A stretch of DNA of 32,000 bases from Candidatus Electronema halotolerans (GTDB lineage: Bacteria; Desulfobacterota; Desulfobulbia; Desulfobulbales; Desulfobulbaceae), in contig OW818675.1 of the NCBI GenBank assembly GCA_942493095.1, positions 1,620,001 through 1,652,000 on the forward strand, written 5' to 3'. The position numbers and the translations under genes were made by a program. Of the stretch, positions 5,135 to 16,486 are shown in pieces. Position 1 is the first letter of the stretch. The number at the start of each line of letters is the position of its first letter. The notes beneath the pieces are model-generated. The model made no database searches, was not told the origin of the DNA, and saw nothing but the letters and a program-made list of their open reading frames with translations.

Positions 5135-5649
5135 GCTGAGAGCAAAAGGAAATTGTCGTGCCGTCCTGCATCGGAAGCAGGGCACAGGTGCAGTTTACCA
5201 GCAGGAAGGCAAAGAGGCAATGCAAAACACAAGAACTTGCCGCTGAGGAAAAAGAACAGGATTTCAGTCTGCTGCCTTTGGACAGCACCGCCTTTTTCAG
5301 AAAAGACCGTGCTGTCCGTCTGAACTCCCAGTTCTCTTTTTCTTTTACAAAACAGCGTGTTGCTGAACGCCTCCGGCAGGAAGACGGAACAAGGCCTGTT
5401 CTTCAGCAGACGGCCCGGCAGGATTCATTTCACCAGCAATGGCAAAAAAATCGGGAAGATATTTCAAGGCCTGACAGCCCTGCCATCAGCACCCTTCCTT
5501 GCGCCTTCGCACGGCCCGTTCGTTTCGCTGTGAAGTCTGACTTTACAGTGGTGTTCTCAGAAGAAATATGCTATCCTGATGGGCACGTGTTATATACTGT
5601 ACTGTTATCTCTGGTTAAAGGTTGCACCCTGTTGAGGAGGGGCTATTTC

Positions 5650-5871
5650 ATGCAGTTCAACGCCATCATTGAGCATGACCAAGACGGCTGGTATGCGTAT
5701 GTCCCTTCCTTGCAAGGCTGCGTGAGCCAAGGCGACACGCTGGAAGAGGTGCTTGCCAATATCAAAGAGGCCGTCGAGCTGTACTTGGAAGACATGGACG
5801 AGCAGGAGAAGGAAAGCCTTTCCAAATGCAGCTATCTTATAGCTCCCATTCAGATTGCAGCGCATGTCTAA
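5650..5871 (+). CDS. hicB: HicB-family antitoxin (UPF0150-type)
   Basis: MQFNAIIEHDQDGWYAYVPSLQGCVSQGDTLEEVLANIKEAVELYLEDM matches the classic HicB N-terminal fold pattern (..GGY.A.VP.L.GC.SQG.T.EEA..N..EA...). A GAGGAGG Shine-Dalgarno sequence lies 9 nt upstream of the ATG at 5650. The longer track ORF from 5158 is an upstream read-in. Confidence 0.85.
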   Translation: MQFNAIIEHDQDGWYAYVPSLQGCVSQGDTLEEVLANIKEAVELYLEDMDEQEKESLSKCSYLIAPIQIAAHV

Positions 5872-6070
5872 GAAGTGGCCGCGTCTGACTGCGCAGGAGG
5901 CGGAAAAGCTGCTGCTGGACAAAGGATTCGAGTTGTCCCGGCAGAAAGGCAGTCACCGAGTGTACCGCAAGGACAGCTGCCGCATGGTCATTCCGCACCA
6001 TCAAGGAAAAACGCTGCATCCGAAAATCATCAGAGAGCTGTTCGATCTGCTGCTTGATGCCACAAAGTGA
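5864..6070 (+). CDS. hicA: HicA-family mRNA interferase toxin
   Basis: MSKKWPRLTAQEAEKLLLDKGFELSRQKGSHRVYRKD...VIPHHQGKTLHPKIIRELFDLL shows the HicA/YcfA pattern (GSH...vP.H.gK.l..g....I). The ATG at 5864 overlaps the hicB stop by 8 nt (ATGTCTAA). Confidence 0.85.
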   Translation: MSKKWPRLTAQEAEKLLLDKGFELSRQKGSHRVYRKDSCRMVIPHHQGKTLHPKIIRELFDLLLDATK

Positions 6071-6112: not shown

Positions 6113-7279
6113 CTACCTCACCTTCCCCAGCCTCTCCCTCGACTCCTCATTCTTTGCCAGCCGGTTACGCAGCTCCTCCAGCTTGGCCCGCTCCTTCTCC
6201 ACCACATCCGCCGGGGCATTGGCAAGGAACTTCTCATTGCCGAGCTTGCCGCGCACCCGCTGCAAGTCCTGCTCCAGAGTCTTACGCTCGCGGGCCAGCT
6301 TGTCCAACTCCGCATCCACGTCAATCAGCTCCTTGAGCGGCACGACCACCTCCACCCCGCTGACCAAGCTGTGCGCCGCATCGTCCGGCACCGCGCCTGA
6401 TTCTGCAATCTCCAGCGTCTCAGCGCGGGTCATGGCGCAGACAGAGCCGCTGAACGACTGAAGCAGCTCGCGCTTGGCTGCGTCAGCACAGATCAGGCTG
6501 ACATGCAGCTTCGCGCTCGGATGCACGTTGGCCTCGCTGCGGATGGTGCGCACCGCTGTGATGATCTCCATAAGGAGCTGCATGGACTGCTCGGTCTCGG
6601 CATCCTGCCACGCCGGCTTGGCCTCTGGGAATGACTCAAGCATGATCGTGCCGCGTTCGCCCGGCAGTTGGCTCCAGATTTCCTCAGTAACGAACGGGCA
6701 GATCGGGTGGAGGAGCTTGAGAATGTGCTCCAGCACACAGAGGAGCACGCCCCGCGCCTCCTCGCGCTTGGCAGTGTCATCGCTGAACAAATCCGCCTTG
6801 ATCCACTCCACGTACCAGTCGCAGAACTCATGCCAAGTGAACTGGTAGATGGCCGAGGCGATCAGGTTGAAGTCATAGCCGTCCAATGCCTTGCGCACGT
6901 CGCGGATGGTGGCGTTGGTGCGGCTCAATATCCAGCGGTGCGGCAGGGCCAGCTTGCCCGGTTCGTCCGCCACCGCAACAATGTCCGGCTCGCTCTCCTT
7001 GATGTGCATCTGGGCGAAGCGGGCCGCGTTCCACAGCTTGTTGATGAAGCGGCGGTAGCCGTCGATGCGCTCCTCGTCCATCTTGATTTCACGCCCTTGC
7101 GCAGCGAAAGCGGTCAGGGTGAAGCGGAAAGCATCGGTGCCGTACTGGGCGATCATGTCGAGCGGGTCGATCACATTGCCCGTTGATTTGGACATCTTTT
7201 TGCCGTGCTTGTCGCGCACCAAGGCGTGCAAATACACGTCGCGGAACGGCACCTCGTCCATGAAGTGGAGGAGCATCAT
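6113..7279 (-). CDS. 5'-truncated valyl-tRNA synthetase paralogue (C-terminal 388 aa: KMSKS loop, anticodon-binding domain, C-terminal coiled coil). The ORF is intact; it may be a relic pseudogene.
   Basis: It aligns without gaps to residues about 523-911 of the full valS ORF at a constant offset of 6283 nt. I count about 33 aa substitutions in 388 by hand, and roughly 90% nt identity. The catalytic Rossmann and editing domains are absent. Its ATG overlaps the stop of the upstream TPR gene (TGATG). Confidence 0.7.
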   Translation of the reverse strand: MMLLHFMDEVPFRDVYLHALVRDKHGKKMSKSTGNVIDPLDMIAQYGTDAFRFTLTAFAAQGREIKMDEERIDGYRRFINKLWNAARFAQMHIKESEPDIVAVADEPGKLALPHRWILSRTNATIRDVRKALDGYDFNLIASAIYQFTWHEFCDWYVEWIKADLFSDDTAKREEARGVLLCVLEHILKLLHPICPFVTEEIWSQLPGERGTIMLESFPEAKPAWQDAETEQSMQLLMEIITAVRTIRSEANVHPSAKLHVSLICADAAKRELLQSFSGSVCAMTRAETLEIAESGAVPDDAAHSLVSGVEVVVPLKELIDVDAELDKLARERKTLEQDLQRVRGKLGNEKFLANAPADVVEKERAKLEELRNRLAKNEESRERLGKVR

Positions 7280-8241
7280 CAGAGGGATGATTCCTGCCGC
7301 TCTGCCCGCACTTCCTCCAATGCTTTGCGGTCATCCTTCAAATCAGGATGATCGACAGCCTCTTCAATATGCACGGCTTTGCTGATATATTCCTCCGCCT
7401 TGGCAATATCGTCTATATCGTAATATGTGAGGCCAATGTTCCAACAGCTTTCCGCTTCTCCAATCTTATCTCCAACTTCTTTGCGTGTTGCCAAGGCTCG
7501 TTTGTGATATTCTAACGCCTTGGTATAGTTGTTCAATGTACGGAATATTTCGCCGATATTGTTCAATGACGTACCCGCTCCAGCCTTATCGCTTTCTTGT
7601 AAGGTTATATCCAAGTTATAATACGTCAAAGCTGTCTCATAGTCACCTTGCTCATAATAAAGTCTGCCGATGTTGTTCAGAACTATTCCTTCTCCCTTTC
7701 GATCTCCTCCCTTCCGACATATCGTCAAGTCTTGCTCGTAATATTTCAAGGCCAGCTTATGGTTGCCCTGCTGCTGATATATCTCTGCGATGTTGTTTAA
7801 GGTCAATCCTTCACCTTGCCTATCCTCCAGCTCTCGGTCTATCTCAAGGCTTTGTTCATACCACATTAATGCTTTCTCGTGTTCACCGCGCCGCCCACAA
7901 ATGTAGCCGAGATTGTTCAGACACATGCTTTCATTTCTGCGGGCACCTTGCTGTCGGGCCGCATTCAAGTTCATCTCAACGACCGCCATATTTTCTGCCC
8001 AATACCCCTGCTGGTCTAAGTAGGTATTGATTGCTTCAGCTAAGTCATTTACCTCTTGCCACAGCCTGCTAGCCAAGCAGACCTCCAACAACCGCAGGCA
8101 TTGCACTCGCTCCTTATTCAGCCGAGCGTACCCCGCCGCACCACGAGCACTCTCCTTTTCTGCCAATGCAGTATAGTGCGCAGCAAGCCGTTGGTATACT
8201 TCGGTCAGTTCAGCACTTGAAGCAGTATGGTTAGACATCAT
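7279..8241 (-). CDS. TPR-repeat protein, NLR-type sensor arm paralogue B (helical linker plus five 40-aa TPR_12-like repeats)
   Basis: It contains repeats of the form LNNIG.IY..QG.Y..AL.YYEQ.L.I....GD..GEG. The N-terminal 45 aa are nearly identical to the 5' stub at 10747..10879. The start is the ATG at 8241 (or 8238), while the track ORF starts at the TTG at 8247. Confidence 0.85.
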   Translation of the reverse strand: MMSNHTASSAELTEVYQRLAAHYTALAEKESARGAAGYARLNKERVQCLRLLEVCLASRLWQEVNDLAEAINTYLDQQGYWAENMAVVEMNLNAARQQGARRNESMCLNNLGYICGRRGEHEKALMWYEQSLEIDRELEDRQGEGLTLNNIAEIYQQQGNHKLALKYYEQDLTICRKGGDRKGEGIVLNNIGRLYYEQGDYETALTYYNLDITLQESDKAGAGTSLNNIGEIFRTLNNYTKALEYHKRALATRKEVGDKIGEAESCWNIGLTYYDIDDIAKAEEYISKAVHIEEAVDHPDLKDDRKALEEVRAERQESSL

Positions 8242-8265
8242 TCTCAATGGTCTGACTTGAACTCA

Positions 8266-8396
8266 CACTATGGTGTGAAGAAGGGAGACACTACGGTATC
8301 TCCTGTCGAGACACCAAGGTAACTCTCGTGGAGTCACTATGGTAACTCGGAGGGAGACACTACGGTGTCTCTTTGGGAGATATCGTAGTGTCTCCC
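8266..8396. repeat. Three copies of a 20-22-nt palindromic hairpin unit (GGAGACAC-TACG-GTRTCTCC): two direct copies embedded in a 38-nt direct repeat, and one inverted copy
   Basis: Copy A is at 8266..8303 (cactatggtgtgaagaagggagacactacggtatctcc). Copy B is at 8335..8372 (cactatggtaactcggagggagacactacggtgtctc). Copy C, inverted, is at 8375..8396 (gggagatatcgtagtgtctccc). In copy B, gagacac/gtgtctc forms a perfect 7-bp stem with a tacg loop. All copies lie in the 163-nt gap between the two TPR genes. Confidence 0.8.
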
Positions 8397-8404
8397 ACGA
8401 AAGG

Positions 8405-9260
8405 CTATTTCTCTCCAGTCGGCCCCTGTGCCGCCAGCCGTTTTGCTCGCACCCGTTCCAATCCATCGCGGCTATCTACTATATTAGGGCTACCGATGGC
8501 TTCTTCAATCTGTACAGTACGGCTGATGTATTCTTCCGCCTTGGTAAGGTTGTCTATGTCTTCATAGGTGAGGCCGATGTTCCAGCATGTGACCGCTTCT
8601 CCTGCCTTGTCACCCAACTCCCGGCATATTGCCAAGTCTTGTTGATGATACTCCAATGCCTTAGCATGATCACCTTGCGCACGGTAGATCATGGCAATGT
8701 TGGTCAGGGTTGTTCCTGCCCCAATCTTATCGCCAATCTCTTTTACGATAGGCAAGCATTGCTCATAGTATGACAAGGCTTGCTCATTGTCACCTTGTAC
8801 CCTGTAAGTCATACCGATATTATTTATGATCTTACTTTCCCCCTCCCGGTCGCCGATCTCCTGACAGATGCTCAGACTTTGCTGGTATGTCTCCAAGGCC
8901 AGCTCGTACTTGCCCTGTTGATGATAAATCGTTGCAATGCCGGTTAAGGTTGCGCCTTCTGCCGGTCGATAACCAGCGAGGTAGGCGGCAGGCAGGCTTT
9001 GCTCATACCACGCTAATGCCTTATCAAGCTCCCCGCGCCGCCAGCAGGTGTAGCCTAATGTACACAGGCACCAGCTTTCATCCTTACGGTTGTTGCTTTT
9101 TCGGGCCGCAGTCAGACGCATATCAAAAGCGGCCAGCAGCTCTGTCAACCAGCCCTGCCGGTCAAGGTAGATATAAGTTGCACCGACTAAGTATTGCAAC
9201 TCCTGCCACAGCCTGCTTTCAAGGCAACTCTCCATCACCCGCATACACTGCACCCGCTCC
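8405..9260 (-). CDS. TPR-repeat sensor arm paralogue A, 3' portion of a gene split by the IS66-family insertion (5'-truncated, probably not expressed as such)
   Basis: Track ORF 8405..9253 begins VQCMRVMESCLESRLWQEL. This continues the 5' stub (..GYARLDKER) exactly as paralogue B reads (..GYARLNKERVQCLRLLEVCLASRLWQEV). Five TPR_12-like repeats follow. Confidence 0.85.
9253..9260. repeat. Target-site duplication, left copy (CCCGCTCC)
   Basis: The 8-bp sequence cccgctcc directly abuts IRL. An identical 8-mer abuts IRR at 10747..10754. Confidence 0.9.
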
Positions 9261-10746
9261 GTAACTGATCACAGGGTGTCTCTAAAAAACACTGGCGCTT
9301 GGCATCGCAACTGGATAAATTGTGAGCAGTAATTTTTTCCGCAGGAGAAAGCTGTGACCGCCCCGTTCCATCGTGAAAATTTTGAGATAAGCGAGGAAGA
9401 CCTTGCCGCTACACCTCCTGCGGTGCGGAAGCTGCTGTCTTTTTTGATCGCTGAGGTAACGCGGCTGAGAAAACGGGTCGAAGAGCTTGAGGCGAAACTC
9501 GGCGAAGATTCCTCGAACTCGAACAGGCCGCCTTCTTCCGACTCTCCGTTTACAGAAAAACGGCAGAGAGATCAGGCGGGGAAGCCCCGGAAAAAGCGGC
9601 GTGGATATCGTCAGGAGCTGATGCCGCCGACAGAAACGCAAAAAATGTATCCTTCCGCCTGCTCCTGCGGTTGCGGCAAATTCAAAAACATACGGTCATA
9701 TTATACGCATCAGCATATTGAACTGCCGGAAATCGTGATGCAGGTCAGGCATTTCCTTCTTTATAAAGGTGAATGCGCCGCCTGCGGCAAAACCGTCAGA
9801 GGCTGTGTTCCCGATGAATTCAGAACCGGTTTCGGGGCGCGGTTCACCGCGCTGGTTGCCGAACTGAGCGGCATGGACGGCAGCAGCCGGGGAACTGTGC
9901 GGAAGTTCATCCGTTCCGTGCTCGGCGTTCCTATCAGTGCCGGGGCGGTGCAGAAGATCATTGACCGGGCTTCGGCGGCTGTCGCGCCGCACTATGAGGC
10001 CGTCCGGGCTGCCGTCACAAGCGGGGATATCGGACATGTTGATGAAACAACGTGGAAAACTGGCGGCAGGCTGCGCTGGTTATGGGTTATGGCGAACCGG
10101 CAGGCCGCGTTCTTCATGATTCATCCGAAACGCTCTAAGGAAGCCTTTGAAGAACTGATCGGCGCTTGGAACGGTATTCTCATCAGCGACGGGTACAACG
10201 TGTACCAAAAATGGGTCGGCAAGCGGCAGACTTGCCTCGCGCATCTTATCCGCCGGGCAGACGGCCTTGCGGAGCGCGCTGACCCTGAACTGGCTGCCTG
10301 CGGCAAATGGGCCGCTGCGGAACTGCGGCGGCTCTGCCGCATGGCGAAAGACCCGCCGACCAAAGGTGAACAGTCCGCATTTTATGCCCGGCTCTGCCGA
10401 CTTATCCTGCGCTGGCGCGATTGCGACAGTGATGCGGGGAGGTTTGTCCGTCATATTGAGAAGGAAATGGCTGCGTTGTTCACTTTTCTGCTCGAAGAAG
10501 GCGTAGAACCGACAAATAATCCAGCGGAACGGATGCTCCGCTTCGGCGTGCTGTGGCGCAAACGGAGTCAGGGCACTGACAGCGACAAGGGAAACCGCTG
10601 GGTTGAACGAATCCTTTCCCTCCGGCAGACATGCCTGCTTCGGGGAAAATCCACTTTCGAGGTGCTCACCGAGGCCATGCGCTGCTATTTCAGAGGACAG
10701 ATGCCGGATTTAAGCTGGGTCTGAGCGGTACCCTGTGATCGCTTAC
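9261..10746 (+). mobile_element. IS66-family insertion sequence, single-ORF (ISBst12-like) type, 1486 bp, apparently intact
   Basis: The terminal inverted repeats are GTAACTGATCACAGGGT (9261..9277) and the reverse complement of 10730..10746, GTAAGCGATCACAGGGT (15/17 match, with the GTAA ends typical of IS66). The element is flanked by an 8-bp direct repeat and contains one complete transposase ORF. Confidence 0.92.
9354..10724 (+). CDS. IS66-family transposase (TnpC-type DDE)
   Basis: 456 aa. It has an N-terminal leucine-zipper-like helix (LIAEVTRLRKRVEELEAKL) followed by NSNRPPSSDSPF, a Cys cluster (CSCGCGKF...CAACGK), and then a DDE core (HVDETTW...ISDGY...NNPAERMLR). This is the hallmark IS66 TnpC layout. 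It uses a GTG start. Confidence 0.93.
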   Translation: MTAPFHRENFEISEEDLAATPPAVRKLLSFLIAEVTRLRKRVEELEAKLGEDSSNSNRPPSSDSPFTEKRQRDQAGKPRKKRRGYRQELMPPTETQKMYPSACSCGCGKFKNIRSYYTHQHIELPEIVMQVRHFLLYKGECAACGKTVRGCVPDEFRTGFGARFTALVAELSGMDGSSRGTVRKFIRSVLGVPISAGAVQKIIDRASAAVAPHYEAVRAAVTSGDIGHVDETTWKTGGRLRWLWVMANRQAAFFMIHPKRSKEAFEELIGAWNGILISDGYNVYQKWVGKRQTCLAHLIRRADGLAERADPELAACGKWAAAELRRLCRMAKDPPTKGEQSAFYARLCRLILRWRDCDSDAGRFVRHIEKEMAALFTFLLEEGVEPTNNPAERMLRFGVLWRKRSQGTDSDKGNRWVERILSLRQTCLLRGKSTFEVLTEAMRCYFRGQMPDLSWV

Positions 10747-10754
10747 CCCGCTCC
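10747..10754. repeat. Target-site duplication, right copy (CCCGCTCC)
   Basis: Identical to 9253..9260 and directly abuts IRR. Confidence 0.9.
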
Positions 10755-10879
10755 TTATCTAATCTGGCATATCCCGCCGCACCGCGAGCACTTTCCTTTT
10801 CTGCCAATGCAGTATAATGTGCAGCAAGCCGCTGGGATACTCCAGTCAATTCGTCACTTGACGCAGCATATTCAGGCAT
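10747..10879 (-). pseudogene. 5' stub of TPR sensor arm A (first about 44 codons), severed by the IS66-family element
   Basis: MPEYAASSDELTGVSQRLAAHYTALAEKESARGAAGYARLDKER then runs into IS sequence. The ATG at 10879 overlaps the NB-ARC stop by 8 nt (ATGCCTGA). Removing 9261..10754 restores one 336-codon ORF collinear with paralogue B. Confidence 0.88.
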
Positions 10880-11999
10880 TGACAGTGCCCTCCCACATGG
10901 TTTTGGCATGAACTGTCAGAAGCGCGTGCATCTGGAAGCGCACCTCGCCATCCTCCTGATACGGCTCCAGCAGCCCGCGCCTCTCCAGCTCGCGGATTGT
11001 TGAACGCGGATTCTCCACTCCCCATGCCGCTGCTATGGCAGCAAGATCAAAGGTTGCCGGTTTCGGCGCAAAGACTCCCAAAAAGGCAAACTGCTTCCGG
11101 GTCAGCACATCAAGACGGTCGGTGCTTTTCCGCAGGAGAGCCGCTACGGTAGGTGTAGTCTGGCCGGATAAATCAGTGCGGTCTGCCGGTGCAGATTCTT
11201 TCAGGAGGCGGGTGCCTTCAGCCAGCTCGTCCAGCAAGTCACTGACTCCCCAGCCCAGCGGAGCTTCAGCGGCAAGCAGGCTGCCGGCAACCTTCAGAGC
11301 CAAGGGCAGCCCTTCCAGTTCCTGCACCAACCGCCGCACTCCTTGCTCATCTTGCGCCACCGAATCAGGCGAAAGCTGGCGGATCAACTCGATGGAATCC
11401 TCTTCCGACAGCACCAGCAGCCGGTACACTGACTTGTCCGGCAAACCCAGCTTCCGCGCCACGTCAGGTTCGCGGGTGGTGAGCAGCGTCCGGCACGACT
11501 GCCCGCCGACAAGGAAGGGCTGCGCATCGGCAGCCTGCCACACGTCATCTATGATCAGCAGCATCCGGCGGTCGCGCAGCAGCCCGGCAAGTCGGTTCTG
11601 CCGTTCTTCAATGCGCTGATACCGCTGCGGATCATCACCAAATGCAAGCAGCCATTGCCCCAGTCCTGCCAAAGGATTCGGCGACATACCCAAGGCCGTC
11701 CACAGCACACCGTCCGGGAACGCCTTCTTCACTTCGGCATCATGGGCTATTGCCGCCGCCAGCGTGGTCTTGCCGATTCCGGGCCAGCCCCGCACGCTGG
11801 TAATCAAGGTTGCTGACGGCTTGCCAAAGAGACGCTGCCGTAGCTCGGCCATGTCATTGTCGCGTCCGATGAACAGGTTGGGTGCTGCTGGCAGCAGGCC
11901 GGGAAACGAAACGGTTGCTTTATTGGAAACCCTCTGATTGACGGTGCCCTGTTCTTCGACAATATTGACGATACTGTTGCTGATATTGGTGTCACTCAT
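10872..11999 (-). CDS. NB-ARC (STAND/NLR-type) P-loop NTPase core with no effector or repeat domain
   Basis: 375 aa carrying the full ordered NB-ARC motif set. These are the Walker A motif GWPGIGKTTLA (aa 71-81), Walker B LLIIDDVW, RNBS-B-like RTLLTTR, GLPL (LEGLPLALKVAGSLL), a winged-helix FAFLGVFAP, and an MHD-like QMHALL (Ala in place of Asp). Only about 45 aa precede the NTPase domain. Confidence 0.9.
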   Translation of the reverse strand: MSDTNISNSIVNIVEEQGTVNQRVSNKATVSFPGLLPAAPNLFIGRDNDMAELRQRLFGKPSATLITSVRGWPGIGKTTLAAAIAHDAEVKKAFPDGVLWTALGMSPNPLAGLGQWLLAFGDDPQRYQRIEERQNRLAGLLRDRRMLLIIDDVWQAADAQPFLVGGQSCRTLLTTREPDVARKLGLPDKSVYRLLVLSEEDSIELIRQLSPDSVAQDEQGVRRLVQELEGLPLALKVAGSLLAAEAPLGWGVSDLLDELAEGTRLLKESAPADRTDLSGQTTPTVAALLRKSTDRLDVLTRKQFAFLGVFAPKPATFDLAAIAAAWGVENPRSTIRELERRGLLEPYQEDGEVRFQMHALLTVHAKTMWEGTVNA

Positions 12000-12017
12000 A
12001 ATATGCCTCGTTCTGAC

Positions 12018-12371
12018 TTACAGGCCAAACAGTTTGGCGCAATAAATGGCCGCCTGTGACAGCATATTGCCAACCTTGACGACAGCAGCGACGGTCTTGG
12101 GCAACTGCGCAATAATCATTTCGGCATTCTTCAGACTGCTCAATGCCTTCACAGGCTCATTTTTGACCTGCTGCTCCGCTTCATCCAGCTCATCCCGCAC
12201 CTTCGTCTGCACATCTTCCGGCAGTGCCGCTGTTTCGGTTTTGATTGCCGCTATCAGATTCAGCAAATCCTCAAATGAAGGTTGTTGTGTGCTATTGATG
12301 ATCTGATTGATTACGTCGATCTTTTCAGCCACAGTAACCGTGCTGCCGGTGATGTTGAATGTGTTGTTCAT
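12018..12371 (-). CDS. Small (117 aa) hypothetical protein: N-terminal N/T/I/V-rich motif, acidic helical middle, hydrophobic/amphipathic C-terminal tail; candidate effector or adaptor of the NB-ARC cassette
   Basis: A strong AAGGAG Shine-Dalgarno sequence lies 7 nt upstream of the ATG. The gene starts 24 nt after the valS stop and ends 18 nt before the NB-ARC start. I recognise no family. The N-terminus resembles the NB-ARC N-terminus (see findings). Confidence 0.7.
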   Translation of the reverse strand: MNNTFNITGSTVTVAEKIDVINQIINSTQQPSFEDLLNLIAAIKTETAALPEDVQTKVRDELDEAEQQVKNEPVKALSSLKNAEMIIAQLPKTVAAVVKVGNMLSQAAIYCAKLFGL

Positions 12372-12395
12372 GGTGCTTGCTCCTTTAGAAAGAAC

Positions 12396-13562
12396 TTATT
12401 TCACCGTCCCCAACCTCCCCCTCGACTCTTCGTTCTTGGCCAGCTTGGTCTCCAGCTCCTCCAGCTTGGCCCGCTCCTTCTCCACCACATCCGCCGGGGC
12501 ATTGGCAAGGAACTTCTCATTGCCGAGCTTGCCGCGCACCCGCTGCAAGTCCTGCTCCAGCACCTTGCGCTCGCGGGCCAGCTTGTCCAGCTCCGCGTCC
12601 ACATCAATCAGCTCCTTGAGCGGCACGACCACCTCAATCCCGCTGACCAAGCTATGCGCCGCATCGTCCGGCACTGCGCCGGACTCGACAATGTCTAAGC
12701 TTTCAGCGCGGGTCATGGCGCAGATCGAGCCGCTGAACAACTGAAGCAGCTCCCGCTTGGCCGGATCAGGGCAGATCAGGCTGACATGCAGCTTCGCGCT
12801 CGGATGCACATTCGCCTCACTGCGGATAGTGCGCACAGCCGTGATGATCTCCATGAGGAGCTGCATGGCCTGCTCGGTCTCGGCATCCTGCCACGTCGGC
12901 TTGGCCTCCGGGAAGGACTCCAGCATGATCGTGCCGCGCTGGCCCGGCAGTTGACTCCAGATTTCCTCAGTAACGAACGGGCAGATCGGGTGGAGCATCT
13001 TCAGGATATTCTCCAGCACACAGAGAAGCACGCCCCGCGCCTGCTCGCGTTTGGCAGTATCATCGCTGAACAAATCGGCCTTGATCCACTCCACGTACCA
13101 GTCGCAGAACTCATGCCAGGTGAACTGGTAGATGGCCGAGGCGATCAGGTTGAAATCATAGCCATCCAATGCCTTGCGCACGTCACGGACAGCGGCATCA
13201 GTGCGGCTGAGTATCCAGCGGTGCGGCAGAGCCAAGGCCGCCGGATTGTCTGTGACCGCCGTGATGCCCGGCTCGCTCTCCTTGATGTGCATCTGGGTGA
13301 AGCGGGCTGCGTTCCACAGCTTGTTGATGAAGCGGCGGTAGCCGTCGATACGCTCCTCGTCCATCTTGATTTCCCGGCCCTGGGCGGCAAAGGCGGTCAG
13401 GGTGAAGCGGAAAGCGTCGGTGCCGTACTGGGCGATCATGTCAAGCGGATCAATGACGTTGCCGGTGGACTTGGACATCTTCTTGCCGTGCTTGTCGCGC
13501 ACCAAGGCGTGCAGATACACATCGTGAAAGGGCACCTCGTCCATGAAGTGCAGGCCCATCAT
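12396..13562. repeat. Direct-repeat copy 2 of the valS 3' end (its partner is 6113..7279)
   Basis: The alignment is gapless at a constant offset of 6283 nt at both ends. Homology stops within a few nt of the stop codon on one side and at the ATGATG run on the other. Confidence 0.9.
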
Positions 13563-15086
13563 CATCATCCGCGCCACCCAGAAGAAGAGGATGTCAAAGC
13601 TGGTGATCAGCACCGAGGTGGGATAGAAGGTGGCCAGTTCTTTGGTCTGGTCCGGCCAGCCAAGGGTGGAGAAGGGCCAGAGCGCGGAAGAAAACCACGT
13701 GTCGAGCACGTCATGCTCCTGCTCAATCTGGCTGCTGCCGCACTTGCCGCAGACGGTCGGGTCAAGCGAGACCACGGTCATCTCACCGCAGTCAGCACAA
13801 GTCCAAGCCGGGATGCGGTGGCCCCACCATATCTGCCGCGAAATGCACCAGTCGCGGATGTTGTCCATCCAGGCGTAGAAGGTATTGTACCACGTGTCCG
13901 GGTAGAGCTTGATCCGGCCCTCGCGCACTGCGGCAACCGCCTTGTCTGCCAGCGGGCGCACTGAGACAAACCACTGCTTGGAGGTGGTTGGCTCCACGAC
14001 CGTGGCGCAGCGGTAGCACTTGCCGACCGCGTGCTCATAGTCCTCGATCTTGTCGAGGAAGCCAAGTTCGGCCAAGTCCTTGACAATCTGCTCTCGGCAG
14101 GCGAAGCGGTCCATGCCAGCGTACTTTCCGGCGTTCTCGTTCATGATGCCGTGCTCGTCCATGATCTTGATCCGCTCCAGATTATGGCGCAGGCCGATCT
14201 CGTAGTCGTCGCGGTCGTGCGCAGGCGTGACCTTGAGCGCGCCCGTGCCGAAATCACGCTGGACATGGTGATCAAGCACCACCGGAATGATGCGGTCAAC
14301 AATGGGCAGGCGGATGCCGATTTTGTCCAGCCCGGCATAGCGTTCATCATCAGGATGCACGGCCACCGCCGTGTCGCCGAGCATGGTCTCAGGCCGGGTG
14401 GTGGCGATCACCACCGAGCCGGAGCCGTCCGAGTATGGATAGCGGAGATGATAGAGCTTGCCGTGGGTCGGGTCGTGCTCCACCTCGTCGTCAGACAAAG
14501 CGGTCTTGCAGCGCGGGCACCAGTTGACGATGTAGTCGCCCTTGTAGATCAGGCCCTCGTTGTAGAGGCGGACAAAGACCTCGCGCACCGCCTTGGACAG
14601 ACCCTCGTCCATCGTGAACCGCTCGCGGTCCCAGTCGCAGGACGCGCCCATCCGCTTGAGCTGCTTGATGATCGTGCCGCCCTTGTCGGTGCGCCATTGC
14701 CAGACCCGCTCAATGAACTTGTCCCGGCCCAGCTCGTGGCGGTTGGTCTTCTCAGCAGCAAGCTGCCGCTCCACCACGTTCTGGGTGGCAATGCCCGCGT
14801 GGTCAGTGCCCGGCACCCAGAGGGTGTTGTCGCCTTTCATCCGGTGATAGCGGGTCAGCAAATCCTGAAGCGTGTTGTTGAGGGCGTGGCCGATATGGAG
14901 CACACCGGTCACGTTCGGCGGCGGAATGACAATGGAAAAGGCAGGGCGGCCCGGCTCCATTTGTGCGCTGAAGGTCTTGCCCTCAAGCCAGTATTGATAC
15001 CAGCGTTCTTCAACCTCCTCGAATTCATAGGCTTTGGGCAGGTCGTATTTGGCGGCGCACTGCGGCGTGGTCGTCTCGTTGCTCAT
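12396..15086 (-). CDS. valS: Valine--tRNA ligase (full length)
   Basis: It has the class I HIGH motif (PNVTGVLHIGHALN), a KMSKS motif, an editing (CP1) insertion, an anticodon-binding domain and a C-terminal coiled coil. I trimmed the start to MSNETTTPQ.. (ATG at 15086); the track ORF extends 15 codons further to 15131. Confidence 0.97.
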   Translation of the reverse strand: MSNETTTPQCAAKYDLPKAYEFEEVEERWYQYWLEGKTFSAQMEPGRPAFSIVIPPPNVTGVLHIGHALNNTLQDLLTRYHRMKGDNTLWVPGTDHAGIATQNVVERQLAAEKTNRHELGRDKFIERVWQWRTDKGGTIIKQLKRMGASCDWDRERFTMDEGLSKAVREVFVRLYNEGLIYKGDYIVNWCPRCKTALSDDEVEHDPTHGKLYHLRYPYSDGSGSVVIATTRPETMLGDTAVAVHPDDERYAGLDKIGIRLPIVDRIIPVVLDHHVQRDFGTGALKVTPAHDRDDYEIGLRHNLERIKIMDEHGIMNENAGKYAGMDRFACREQIVKDLAELGFLDKIEDYEHAVGKCYRCATVVEPTTSKQWFVSVRPLADKAVAAVREGRIKLYPDTWYNTFYAWMDNIRDWCISRQIWWGHRIPAWTCADCGEMTVVSLDPTVCGKCGSSQIEQEHDVLDTWFSSALWPFSTLGWPDQTKELATFYPTSVLITSFDILFFWVARMMMMGLHFMDEVPFHDVYLHALVRDKHGKKMSKSTGNVIDPLDMIAQYGTDAFRFTLTAFAAQGREIKMDEERIDGYRRFINKLWNAARFTQMHIKESEPGITAVTDNPAALALPHRWILSRTDAAVRDVRKALDGYDFNLIASAIYQFTWHEFCDWYVEWIKADLFSDDTAKREQARGVLLCVLENILKMLHPICPFVTEEIWSQLPGQRGTIMLESFPEAKPTWQDAETEQAMQLLMEIITAVRTIRSEANVHPSAKLHVSLICPDPAKRELLQLFSGSICAMTRAESLDIVESGAVPDDAAHSLVSGIEVVVPLKELIDVDAELDKLARERKVLEQDLQRVRGKLGNEKFLANAPADVVEKERAKLEELETKLAKNEESRGRLGTVK

Positions 15087-15274
15087 GGTCTGGCGGAAGA
15101 AAATAGAAAAAAAGTGCAGTAACGGCTTCACGCAGCGTCTGCTTAACCGCAGAAAGATGCATGAAGCCGACTGCTGGACAGATTGTCAAGTAAACAAACA
15201 GAGTTCCTGTAGATTCACAGGCAGAAAGATAACGACACGGCTGCGCTGATGCAGCTGCAATGGCTGTGTCCGCC

Positions 15275-16486
15275 TCAGTCCTCCAAAGCGGCCAAAGCTG
15301 TTTTAATCCGGGCCATGCCCTCCTCAATCACTGCCATTGAGGTGGCAAAGGAGAAGCGGACAAAGGCATCCGCGCCAAAGGCCGCGCCCGGCACTGAGGC
15401 GACTTTGGCCTCTTCCAAGAAATAGTCGGCCATGTCAACAGAATTGCTGATCGTTTTGCCCTTGAAGGTTTTGCCGTAATAGGCAGAGAAGTTAGGGAAG
15501 ACATAAAACGCGCCGCTGGGATTGACGCAGGTCACGCCGTCAATGGATTCCAAGTCGCGGACAAAAAAGTCGCGGCGGGGCAGGAAGGCTTTTTTCATCT
15601 CACCGGGGAAATCCTGCGGCCCGATCAGAGCGGCCAAGGCGGCGTATTGGGCCGGAGTACAGGGGTTGGAAGTTGATTGGCTCTGCACCTTGTTCATGGC
15701 CTTGATCAGATGCAGCGGCCCCGCGCACCAGCCAATCCGCCAGCCGGTCATGGCAAAGGACTTGGAGACCCCGTTCAGCACCACGGTCTGCTCTTTCAGG
15801 CGCGGTTCCACGTCGAGAATGTGGGGCAGCTTGCCATCCAAATAGGTGATGGTCTCGTAGATGTCATCGCTGACCACCAGCCAGCCGTGCTCAAGGGCCA
15901 TGTCAGCCACAGCCCGCAGCGCCTGTTCTGAGAAAATCGAGCCAGCCGGATTGGACGGGCTGTTGAGGAAGATGGCGCGGGTTCTGGCAGTCGCCTTGGC
16001 GGCCAGCGTGGCTGGATTGAGGTCAAAATTTGCTGCCTCATCCAAGGGCACCTCAACCGGAATGCCGCCTGCAAGCTGGACTATGGGCGGATACGAAACC
16101 CAGTACGGAGCTGGAATCAGCACCTCGTCGCCGGAATTGAGCAGGGCTTGGAAGATGTTGTACAGGCCGTGCTTGCCGCCGCAGCAGACTTGAATCTGCT
16201 CCGGGGTGTAGTCCCAGCCGTGATCCGCCTTGCAGCGCATGACCACGGCCTCGCGCAGCTCCGGGATGCCCGGCACGGCGGTATAGCGGGTCTGGCCATC
16301 GTCAATTGCTTTTTTCCCTGCCTCGCGGACGTGTTCCGGGGTGTCAAAATCCGGCTCGCCAACACTGAAATTAAGAATGTCCTCGCCAGCGGCCTTGAGG
16401 GCTTTGGCCTTGGCATTGACGGCCAGCGTGGGAGAGGGAGGGACTTGCAGCACCCGGTCGGCAAGACGAATCGGTTCCTGAGCCAT
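15275..16486 (-). CDS. aspC: Aspartate/aromatic aminotransferase, class I PLP-dependent
   Basis: 403 aa. It shows NFSVGEPDF, and NGVSKSFAMTGWRIGW containing the PLP-lysine motif SKSFAMTGWR, which is typical of the AspAT Ib subgroup. Confidence 0.88.
   Translation of the reverse strand: MAQEPIRLADRVLQVPPSPTLAVNAKAKALKAAGEDILNFSVGEPDFDTPEHVREAGKKAIDDGQTRYTAVPGIPELREAVVMRCKADHGWDYTPEQIQVCCGGKHGLYNIFQALLNSGDEVLIPAPYWVSYPPIVQLAGGIPVEVPLDEAANFDLNPATLAAKATARTRAIFLNSPSNPAGSIFSEQALRAVADMALEHGWLVVSDDIYETITYLDGKLPHILDVEPRLKEQTVVLNGVSKSFAMTGWRIGWCAGPLHLIKAMNKVQSQSTSNPCTPAQYAALAALIGPQDFPGEMKKAFLPRRDFFVRDLESIDGVTCVNPSGAFYVFPNFSAYYGKTFKGKTISNSVDMADYFLEEAKVASVPGAAFGADAFVRFSFATSMAVIEEGMARIKTALAALED

Follow-up and report, generated by a model that had tools for sequence, protein, structure and literature searches.

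A diverged partial valS copy flanks an NLR-like cassette in the cable bacterium Candidatus Electronema halotolerans

Two valS 3′ ends and what lies between them

We describe the valS locus of Candidatus Electronema halotolerans, in which the gene for valyl-tRNA synthetase (ValRS) is accompanied, ~5 kb downstream, by a 5′-truncated second copy of its last 43%, with an NLR-like cassette held between the two. The locus lies in a 32,000-nt stretch of DNA (positions 1,620,001 to 1,652,000 of the forward strand of contig OW818675.1, assembly GCA_942493095.1), referred to hereafter as the window. The closed genome is a Nanopore-assembled, Illumina-polished circular metagenome-assembled genome (MAG) from brackish sediment (Nanopore data: Sereika et al, 2023, PMC10030654). 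The gene, its two 3′ ends and a tract common to both are placed in the window as follows.

12396..15086, minus strand: full-length valS, 896 aa from the ATG at 15086; Pfam tRNA-synt_1, Anticodon_1 and Val_tRNA-synt_C
12396..13562, minus strand: repeat copy B, the last 1167 nt of the functional valS (388 codons plus stop)
6113..7279, minus strand: repeat copy A, a 5′-truncated valS corresponding to residues 523–911 of the mechanically called 911-aa frame; reading frame intact, 388 aa
6170..6277 (partner 12453..12560), minus strand: 108-nt tract, 100% identical between A and B in the pairwise alignment

The mechanically called open reading frame (ORF) of valS reaches up to a GTG at 15131, for a length of 911 aa. 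Copy A starts inside the catalytic domain (Pfam recovers the final 67 positions of tRNA-synt_1, then Anticodon_1 and Val_tRNA-synt_C) and is listed by NCBI as a separate 388-aa valine–tRNA ligase; a protein look-up returned copy A and the full ValRS as two annotated proteins of Ca. Electronema halotolerans, both identical to those of the window.

An earlier reading of the window, made from its letters alone (the original prediction), had proposed gapless repeats of ~90% identity at a 6283-nt offset with ~33 substitutions in 388 residues. The alignment bears this out: A and B are 89.03% identical without gaps over 1167 nt at a constant offset of 6283. Their 128 differences fall mostly at third codon positions (84/128), and the differing codons divide into 70 synonymous and 33 non-synonymous, giving 33 changed residues in 388. 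The peptide KKMSKSTGNVIDPLDMI (repeat nt 79–129), for which at least 8 silent differences had been claimed, carries 9. Homology ends as abruptly as had been described, with identity dropping to 13–50% in 30-nt windows beyond 6113–7279; on the coding (minus) strand it starts at TGATGATG and ends with the stop codons.

For comparison, a one-genome-per-species scan gave 80 valS loci, a set enlarged by look-ups of the closest proteins and by a metagenome scan with the NB-ARC protein of the cassette, which contributed one further relative locus. Eight Electronema assemblies were compared (halotolerans itself, HAL, together with VV, V4, PJ, L085, L086, L088 and L090), as were ~75 non-Electronema loci of the Desulfobulbales (flanks up to 10 kb) and Electrothrix aestuarii.

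The pattern of substitution indicates where the two copies diverged. By the Nei–Gojobori method, A and B are separated by a synonymous divergence (dS) of 0.42 and a non-synonymous divergence (dN) of 0.050, a dN/dS ratio (ω) of 0.12 that matches comparisons between orthologues (0.11–0.15). When differences are polarised with two Electronema outgroups, 24 synonymous and 15 non-synonymous changes fall on the A branch, against 36 and 20 on the B branch; with 262 synonymous and 902 non-synonymous sites, neutrality would predict ~1 : 3.4, and ω on the truncated A branch is 0.18. Purifying selection must therefore have acted for nearly all of A's separate history, the neutral share of the branch being at most ~6% by a rough mixture estimate. 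Codons 5–68 of A encode part of a Rossmann fold, a remnant that has no possible activity now that the N-terminal half is gone, and on this branch they took 10 synonymous and 0 non-synonymous changes; that an orphan remnant is so constrained means that the A/B divergence built up within a full-length gene. These data support A and B as xenologous alleles that diverged inside functional genes of different lineages, as the original prediction held. A paralogue duplicated and diverged in place is excluded by the dS of 0.42 and the ω of 0.18 on the truncated branch, and no in-genome pair of valS copies in the eight assemblies exceeds 92% identity, which also speaks against in-genome duplication.

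Copies A and B are nonetheless each other's nearest relatives (91.5% amino acid identity, against at most 88.9% to any other sequence), and the partner lineage was therefore a close, unsampled relative. When A, B and the valS 5′ part were compared segment by segment with ten relatives, identity and dS gave no consistent answer as to which copy is native: A is closer than B to nearly all relatives, by 1–3%, with A and B still sisters. In 15/15 Electronema pairs the valS 3′ part is synonymously more diverged than the 5′ part, which was considered as a hitch-hiking signal and dropped; the same bias occurs in other Desulfobulbales pairs without duplication.

Within this diverged alignment, the 108-nt tract of complete identity has a chance probability of ~2e-4, and every other Electronema copy pair matches at 91–101 of its 108 positions. 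It is either a later gene conversion or the heteroduplex of a crossover; judged from their derived changes, the affinities of A and B do not switch across it, in a comparison without close reference genomes. One contig of the Logan collection (L001) joins A-type alleles, the identical tract and a B-type end with ORF117, and was considered as the junction of an excised circle; no inference was drawn from it. Its differences amount to a single k=31 bubble, the A-side contig of the same run ends 71 nt before the tract (a clippable tip), and bubble popping together with tip clipping during assembly at k=31 accounts for the contig.

Cassette, joint and flanks

The interval between the repeats and the right-hand chromosomal flank hold the following features, given from the valS stop onward.

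12018..12371, minus strand: ORF117, a small helical protein encoded 24 nt beyond the valS stop; weak bpX0 and PDC-M14B matches only
10872..11999, minus strand: NB-ARC STAND NTPase, 375 aa; Pfam NB-ARC, E 1.4e-26
10755..10879, minus strand: 5′ part of TPR1, ATG at 10879 in an 8-nt overlap with the NB-ARC stop; by reconstruction
9261..10746, plus strand: IS66-family insertion sequence (IS), 1486 bp; Pfam DDE_Tnp_IS66, 17-nt terminal inverted repeats
8405..9260, minus strand: 3′ part of TPR1; by profile match and reconstruction
8266..8396, unstranded: hairpin array of five to six 23-nt units of the type GAGACAC-NNNN-GTGTCTC; 3′ appendage of the NLR cassette
7279..8247, minus strand: TPR2, a further TPR gene without an NTPase of its own; TGA stop in overlap with the first ATG of copy A
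5651..6070, plus strand: hicB (5651–5871) and hicA (5864–6070), convergent with copy A; then mreB, mreC and mrdA

The original prediction had placed only an NLR-like cassette and an IS between the repeats, and the content is indeed limited to ORF117, NB-ARC, TPR1 with its IS, the hairpin array and TPR2, in that minus-strand order. The 6.3 kb that it gave for the island is, however, the repeat period: the cargo measures 5116 nt (7280–12395), or 3622 nt once the IS and one copy of its target duplication are subtracted. The cargo pairs a STAND NTPase with a C-terminal repeat sensor (NB-ARC; TPR_12, E 2e-38 in Pfam); no effector domain was recognisable in it, and PADLOC matched it to no Avs or NLR model. 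The ORFs of NB-ARC and TPR1 are distinct and overlap by 8 nt (ATGCCTGA, 10872–10879), so that the NLR-like protein is split. The IS has a single transposase ORF (9354–10724) with DUF6444 and zf-IS66 domains and is flanked by the 8-bp target duplication CCCGCTCC (9253–9260 and 10747–10754); once the IS and one copy of this duplication are taken out, TPR1 reads as an uninterrupted ORF of 326 aa. Short-read contigs (see below) stop 28 nt inside this IS, from which it is probably multicopy in the genome. The first 131 nt of TPR2 are 81% identical to the start of TPR1.

Homologues of NB-ARC occur in PJ (85% amino acid identity), VV (87.9% nt) and the outgroup contig L093 (81% nt), in all three after a valS 3′ end. 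Unrelated genes fill the slot between valS and NB-ARC in PJ, VV, L085 and L093. Distant homologues of the cargo are found in filamentous cyanobacteria and actinomycetes. ORF117, which occupies this slot in the window, is a candidate effector or adaptor of the NLR-like system. Its first ~37 residues (12371–12261) resemble the NB-ARC N-terminus (11999–11892; 35% identity, E 0.001) around a common motif M-x-x-T-x-N-I-x-x-S-x-V...VNQ, a shared N-terminus that looks like the paired effector-associated adaptor domains of STAND conflict systems.

The hairpin unit pattern has six matches against 0.03 expected and appears nowhere else in the window. Arrays of five to eight 23-nt units built of 6–7-bp hairpins stand directly 3′ of the NLR TPR gene in four genomes (array positions L005 5680–5880, L083 ~14100–14230 and L085 ~15215–15400, the last with a different unit sequence). 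PJ, VV and L085 have the equivalent array after the TPR gene and before a valS remnant; in the window, it is absent after TPR2. Rfam gave no family for the array and none in the window; possible readings of the array are a terminator stack, a REP-like element and a recombination-prone spacer.

At the 5′ end of copy A, TGATGATG overlaps the TGA stop of TPR2 (giving TGATG), and the switch from TPR2 to valS falls at valS nt 1568, with the TPR2 3′ end homologous to the end of the L085 NLR up to ...CTCTG. On the left side of the event homology continues into valS, and the far side is the non-homologous joint between TPR2 and A. Adjoining this joint (7262–7279), copy A has MMLLHF in place of the MMGLHF of all relatives; the three nucleotide changes behind this fall within six bases and are possibly a scar of the joining event. 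At the other end, the hicA stop lies 42 nt from the stop of copy A, and hicBA forms the right-hand chromosomal flank. Upstream of the likely hicB start at 5651, the mechanically called ORF that contains this gene runs on for a further 164 codons (5158–5650); this extension matches no family and is probably non-coding.

A search for the means of mobility was unproductive, in line with what the original prediction had stated. The only recombinase that Pfam detects among the island ORFs and in the rest of the window is the IS66-family DDE transposase, which has its own target duplication; the window contains no tRNA gene, and as a possible attachment-site (att) core the borders offer only TGATGATG, common at one border and made of 8 nt of the ATG run. 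PLSDB, where a plasmid home for the cassette was to be sought, holds no plasmid relative and no vehicle carrying a valS fragment. The empty site that might have been expected, valS directly beside hicA or mreB, occurs in none of the sampled relatives, and synteny around valS is not conserved on either side in any relative examined.

Partial valS copies throughout the genus

All eight Electronema assemblies examined carry partial valS copies. In VV, V4, PJ, L085, L086, L088 and L090, these lie at most 10 kb from the full gene or its cassette, and within a genome they are 82–92% identical to the resident valS, never ~100%. No partial copies were found in Electrothrix aestuarii or at the ~75 other Desulfobulbales loci. 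The arrangements in the seven assemblies besides HAL are these.

VV: full valS, 7 kb of cargo, copy from residue 361, NB-ARC–TPR, hairpin array, 86-nt valS stub
PJ: same truncated copy and cassette as VV
V4: 3′ copy with in-frame deletions; 5′ fragment upstream
L085: valS, HetE-N, NACHT/TPR NLR, hairpin array, decayed remnant, then argG
L086: valS, PIN toxin-antitoxin pair, frameshifted copy from residue 606
L088: 5′ fragment, cargo, HEPN-nucleotidyltransferase (HEPN-NTase), full gene
L090: three valS pieces

The cassette beside valS fragments, which the original prediction had suggested looking for in other genomes, is thus found, and the duplicated structure that it would have counted against itself is there in part: NLR cassettes flanked by valS remnants recur, with joints that differ. 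Six arrangements (the window, VV, V4, L085, L086 and L090) have orphan 3′ fragments behind the full gene in the same orientation. The break points are at valS residues 361, 523, ~545, 606, 711 and ~805 (at least six in eight assemblies), 5′ as well as 3′ fragments are present, the cargo ranges over toxin-antitoxin pairs, caspases, NLRs and metabolic genes, and none of the Electronema valS islands carries an integrase. Differing break points, fragment types and cargo, together with the missing integrase, make a site-specific mechanism very unlikely.

Some of these copies record how truncation came about. The truncated copy of VV, PJ and L090 keeps the native upstream neighbours of valS (the HEPN-NTase pair) and is separated from the intact L088 unit by a single clean deletion of 1200 nt; it is therefore what remains of a complete second gene. 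In PJ and VV the truncation joint is the same and the flank is 95–100% identical, whereas the truncated interior is only 75–95% identical, with an ω of 0.12. A divergent interior behind a shared joint means that truncated copies keep exchanging with diverged functional alleles, and such exchange keeps headless copies open and purified-looking without selection on the fragment itself. Decay is the usual fate of such copies, with decayed remnants in L085, L086, L090, V4, PJ and VV.

The order of valS 3′ end followed by NB-ARC–TPR is common to PJ, VV, a JGI Electronema contig and the outgroup contig L093. The valS of L093 is only 77% identical, and NB-ARC homologues of 81–88% nt identity follow the valS 3′ end; from PJ, VV and L093 it follows that the valS–NLR linkage is older than the event in the window.

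Three further observations concern the surroundings of valS. Fragments of its 5′ part lie upstream of the full gene, with cargo between, at L084 1496–2266, L088 524–1888 and L090 3974–5260; they represent residues 1–437, 1–428 or 143–390 and are 88–93% identical to the resident gene, the L088 fragment being nearer to halotolerans valS (90.1%) than is the full L088 copy (86.2%). The HEPN-NTase toxin-antitoxin pair is a recurrent upstream neighbour of Electronema valS units (L083, L005, L086, L088 and L090) and is 95–100% identical between PJ and VV where the adjoining valS is ~88% identical, which suggests that the pair was recently transferred. Finally, the MAG Desulfobulbus sp. CA_2019_NHSR_67 has two valS loci (L006 and L008), a full gene on a contig of 366 kb and a fragment at one end of a contig of 4.6 kb, with a weak TPR match downstream of the fragment. 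With the fragment at a contig end, a duplication is not demonstrable; the two loci could reflect strain heterogeneity or a further case outside Electronema.

Routes to the present locus

Any route to this arrangement, and any choice of native copy, we infer from the features above. In the account we favour, to which we give a probability of roughly 0.6, integrase-free recombination anchored in valS joined xenologous valS 3′ ends and the NLR-like cassette on one chromosome. Copies A and B would come from two lineages of the halotolerans branch of Ca. Electronema. Homologous recombination of the RecA type, with the conserved, essential valS as anchor, would have joined a valS 3′ end and its linked cassette (ORF117, NB-ARC, TPR1, hairpin array and TPR2) to a chromosome that already had valS, and the far end would have been closed by an illegitimate joint or a later deletion placing the TPR2 stop codon against valS nt 1568. 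The outcome would be a redundant, promoter-less and headless copy A, made without any site-specific recombinase; afterwards A and B would have exchanged at least one tract, of 108 nt, and the IS66-family element would have disrupted TPR1. The integrase-free hitch-hiking of the original prediction thus keeps its anchor in valS, with break points that vary from genome to genome; the casting of the cassette as newcomer and the direction of transfer do not carry over.

Several points weigh against this account. The joint between TPR2 and A depends on the Nanopore-based assembly alone, and microhomology at it is unreadable without the parental sequences. The sampled relatives include no genome of the same species or a sister species, hence no empty site, donor or mapped crossover. 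Given the age of the valS–NLR linkage (PJ, VV, L085 and L093), the cassette may be resident and A the import. Lastly, the truncated ORFs of HAL, VV and PJ are intact and of low ω, and the fragment itself could be under selection. Four routes moreover give the same product: a linear one-sided event, a double crossover with a valS-bracketed island, a Campbell circle, and a tandem copy later trimmed.

The third of these is the mechanism originally proposed, in which a non-replicating circle carrying a 5′-truncated valS and the cassette entered by one crossover within the 1167-nt homology, leaving A and B as reciprocal chimeras. The insertion-duplication structure on which the proposal was built stands, since direct repeats with one intact and one truncated copy are exactly the expected end state, and the 108-nt tract could be a repaired crossover heteroduplex; the repeats would also permit excision and re-integration of the circle. 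The circle itself finds no support, however, with no related plasmid in PLSDB and contig L001 accounted for by assembly simplification, nor do the derived changes of A and B switch affinity beside the identical tract. A linear double crossover or a one-sided event would yield the same product, so that the single crossover is not singled out among the routes, and one truncated copy among the relatives arose by deletion instead. We regard a strict Campbell event as possible and rather improbable.

Much the same standing, that of a tentative minority explanation, belongs to displacement in situ: a foreign valS with its cassette would have inserted upstream of the resident valS, followed by deletion of the first 1567 nt of the downstream gene, up to the end of TPR2. 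Exactly such a deletion, of 1200 nt and with the native HEPN-NTase neighbours kept, made the copy of VV, PJ and L090, and deletion also predicts that the hairpin array should be missing after TPR2, as it is in the window; in PJ, VV and L085 an array does follow the TPR gene ahead of the valS remnant. Set against this, no sampled genome has two complete valS genes, what lies upstream of the joint is a TPR gene and not the native valS upstream region, and the deletion would have needed to end exactly at the TPR2 stop codon.

It is improbable that copy A persists for a function of its own, as a selected C-terminal ValRS protein (anticodon-binding domain and coiled-coil arm) serving as tRNA-binding partner or decoy of the NLR-like system and perhaps translationally coupled to TPR2 through TGATG. 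Such a role would account for an intact 388-aa ORF with a branch ω of 0.18, for intact ORFs in VV and PJ (ω 0.12 between them despite their shared truncation joint), for the overlapping TPR2 stop and copy A start codons and for valS pieces flanking NLR cassettes in four genomes. It fits poorly with the frameshifted or internally deleted remnants of L085, L086, L090 and V4, with the 60–140-nt stubs that are all that remain downstream of the NLR in PJ and VV, and with break points and neighbouring cargo that differ; the orphan Rossmann remnant is equally constrained, which is unexpected for a stand-alone tRNA-binding protein, the run ATGATGATG gives a TGA in one frame by itself, and neither PADLOC nor other families lend support.

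Still less credible is a relic of an integrase-borne element that targeted valS, replaced its 3′ end and later lost the integrase. Such elements classically leave a displaced 3′ end that extends from a fixed point as far as the stop codon; decay of the island has already begun, as its IS insertion shows, and V4 has a Phage_integrase fragment ~6.6 kb downstream of its truncated valS copy. There is no recombinase gene in or near the island of the window, though, and neither the spread of break points across the genus, in 5′ and 3′ fragments alike, nor the sole identical border core of 8 nt of ATG run fits a fixed target; the repeats, at 1.1–1.6 kb, are far longer than att-linked replacements.

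As to the assembly itself, short-read contigs match the junction mreB–hicBA–A 3′ end at 100% in two runs (L091 and L092), and the stretch from the B 3′ end through ORF117, NB-ARC and TPR1 to the IS edge at 99.6–99.8% in two runs (L001 and L002). They stop inside the 108-nt tract common to A and B, as expected when both copies are present. The joint between TPR2 and A has no independent match, exact-protein look-ups of copy A and TPR2 in the contig index being empty, and contains no repeat able to produce a false join. Misassembly of two strains, for which a Nanopore MAG and the unconfirmed joint leave some room, is very improbable given that two of three junction types are reproduced at 99.6–100% in two short-read runs, that the joint has no shared repeat, that both copies stand in the NCBI record and that seven independent assemblies have analogous structures.

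Known systems and meaning for cable bacteria

The closest described pattern is the displacement of 3′ ends at Rhs, CdiA and type VI secretion system (T6SS) effector loci (Jackson et al, 2009; Poole et al, 2011; as cited in Kirchberger et al, 2017, PMC5361080), for which that account proposes homologous and homology-facilitated illegitimate recombination with no integrase. There, too, a full-length gene is followed by same-orientation orphan 3′ fragments that retain the conserved part, in a mosaic locus where horizontally gained 3′ ends push old ones downstream. Unlike those loci, the anchor here is an essential housekeeping enzyme and not a polymorphic toxin; both 3′ ends encode the same ValRS domains (91.5% identity) with no toxin/immunity variation, the payload consists of separate genes (NLR-like, toxin-antitoxin, caspase and metabolic), and 5′ fragments occur too.

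Homology-facilitated illegitimate recombination (de Vries & Wackernagel, 2002; Prudhomme et al, 2002; Meier & Wackernagel, 2003; as cited in PMC5361080; PMC3240628) is known from experiments solely in species with natural competence and in conjugation of E. coli. It combines one homologous anchor with one illegitimate joint and requires no enzyme of the element, which fits the homologous left side and the sharp joint between TPR2 and valS. We know of no competence, DNA-uptake or gene-transfer route in cable bacteria.

Campbell insertion-duplication, in which a non-replicating circle enters through a gene fragment, is the principle behind suicide vectors. The window resembles its product in having an intact gene and a truncated copy as direct repeats around an insert, and departs from it in the want of a natural vehicle (PLSDB), the 11% divergence of the repeats and an unmapped crossover. 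The elements e14 and phage 21 at icd are integrase-borne and replace the 3′ end of a protein gene; as at valS, the displaced native 3′ end lies downstream of the element and the gene is left intact. They have an integrase, a fixed att core and a short replaced stretch, none of which holds at valS. For the cargo alone, the order of NB-ARC NTPase and TPR sensor-type repeats recalls Avs-like STAND/NLR systems, unlike which it is split into separate ORFs, has a second TPR gene and no recognised effector, and has its TPR1 inactivated by the IS.

We tentatively raise a further proposal, which is more likely to prove wrong than right: that valS-bracketed islands are a self-contained, enzyme-free mobile unit of cable bacteria, entering naive valS genes by homologous recombination alone, with headless copies kept intact by exchange as landing pads or allele stores. 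If so, any linear or circular copy of an island would enter valS whatever the flanking synteny, and repeated rounds would stack cargo and valS fragments, as in the three pieces of L090.

The movement of defence islands is usually ascribed to integrases, transposases or exchange between two conserved flanks. Here, a single essential gene would be the only homology anchor, and the footprint a diverged, still-intact partial copy. Were this general, diverged partial duplicates of housekeeping genes would be a searchable signature of integrase-free gene gain, and truncated aminoacyl-tRNA synthetase genes annotated as ordinary ligases would need re-reading. Most worth following are that partial copies recur throughout the genus and that headless ones persist intact; the case points to active DNA exchange between lineages of these uncultured, multicellular cable bacteria.

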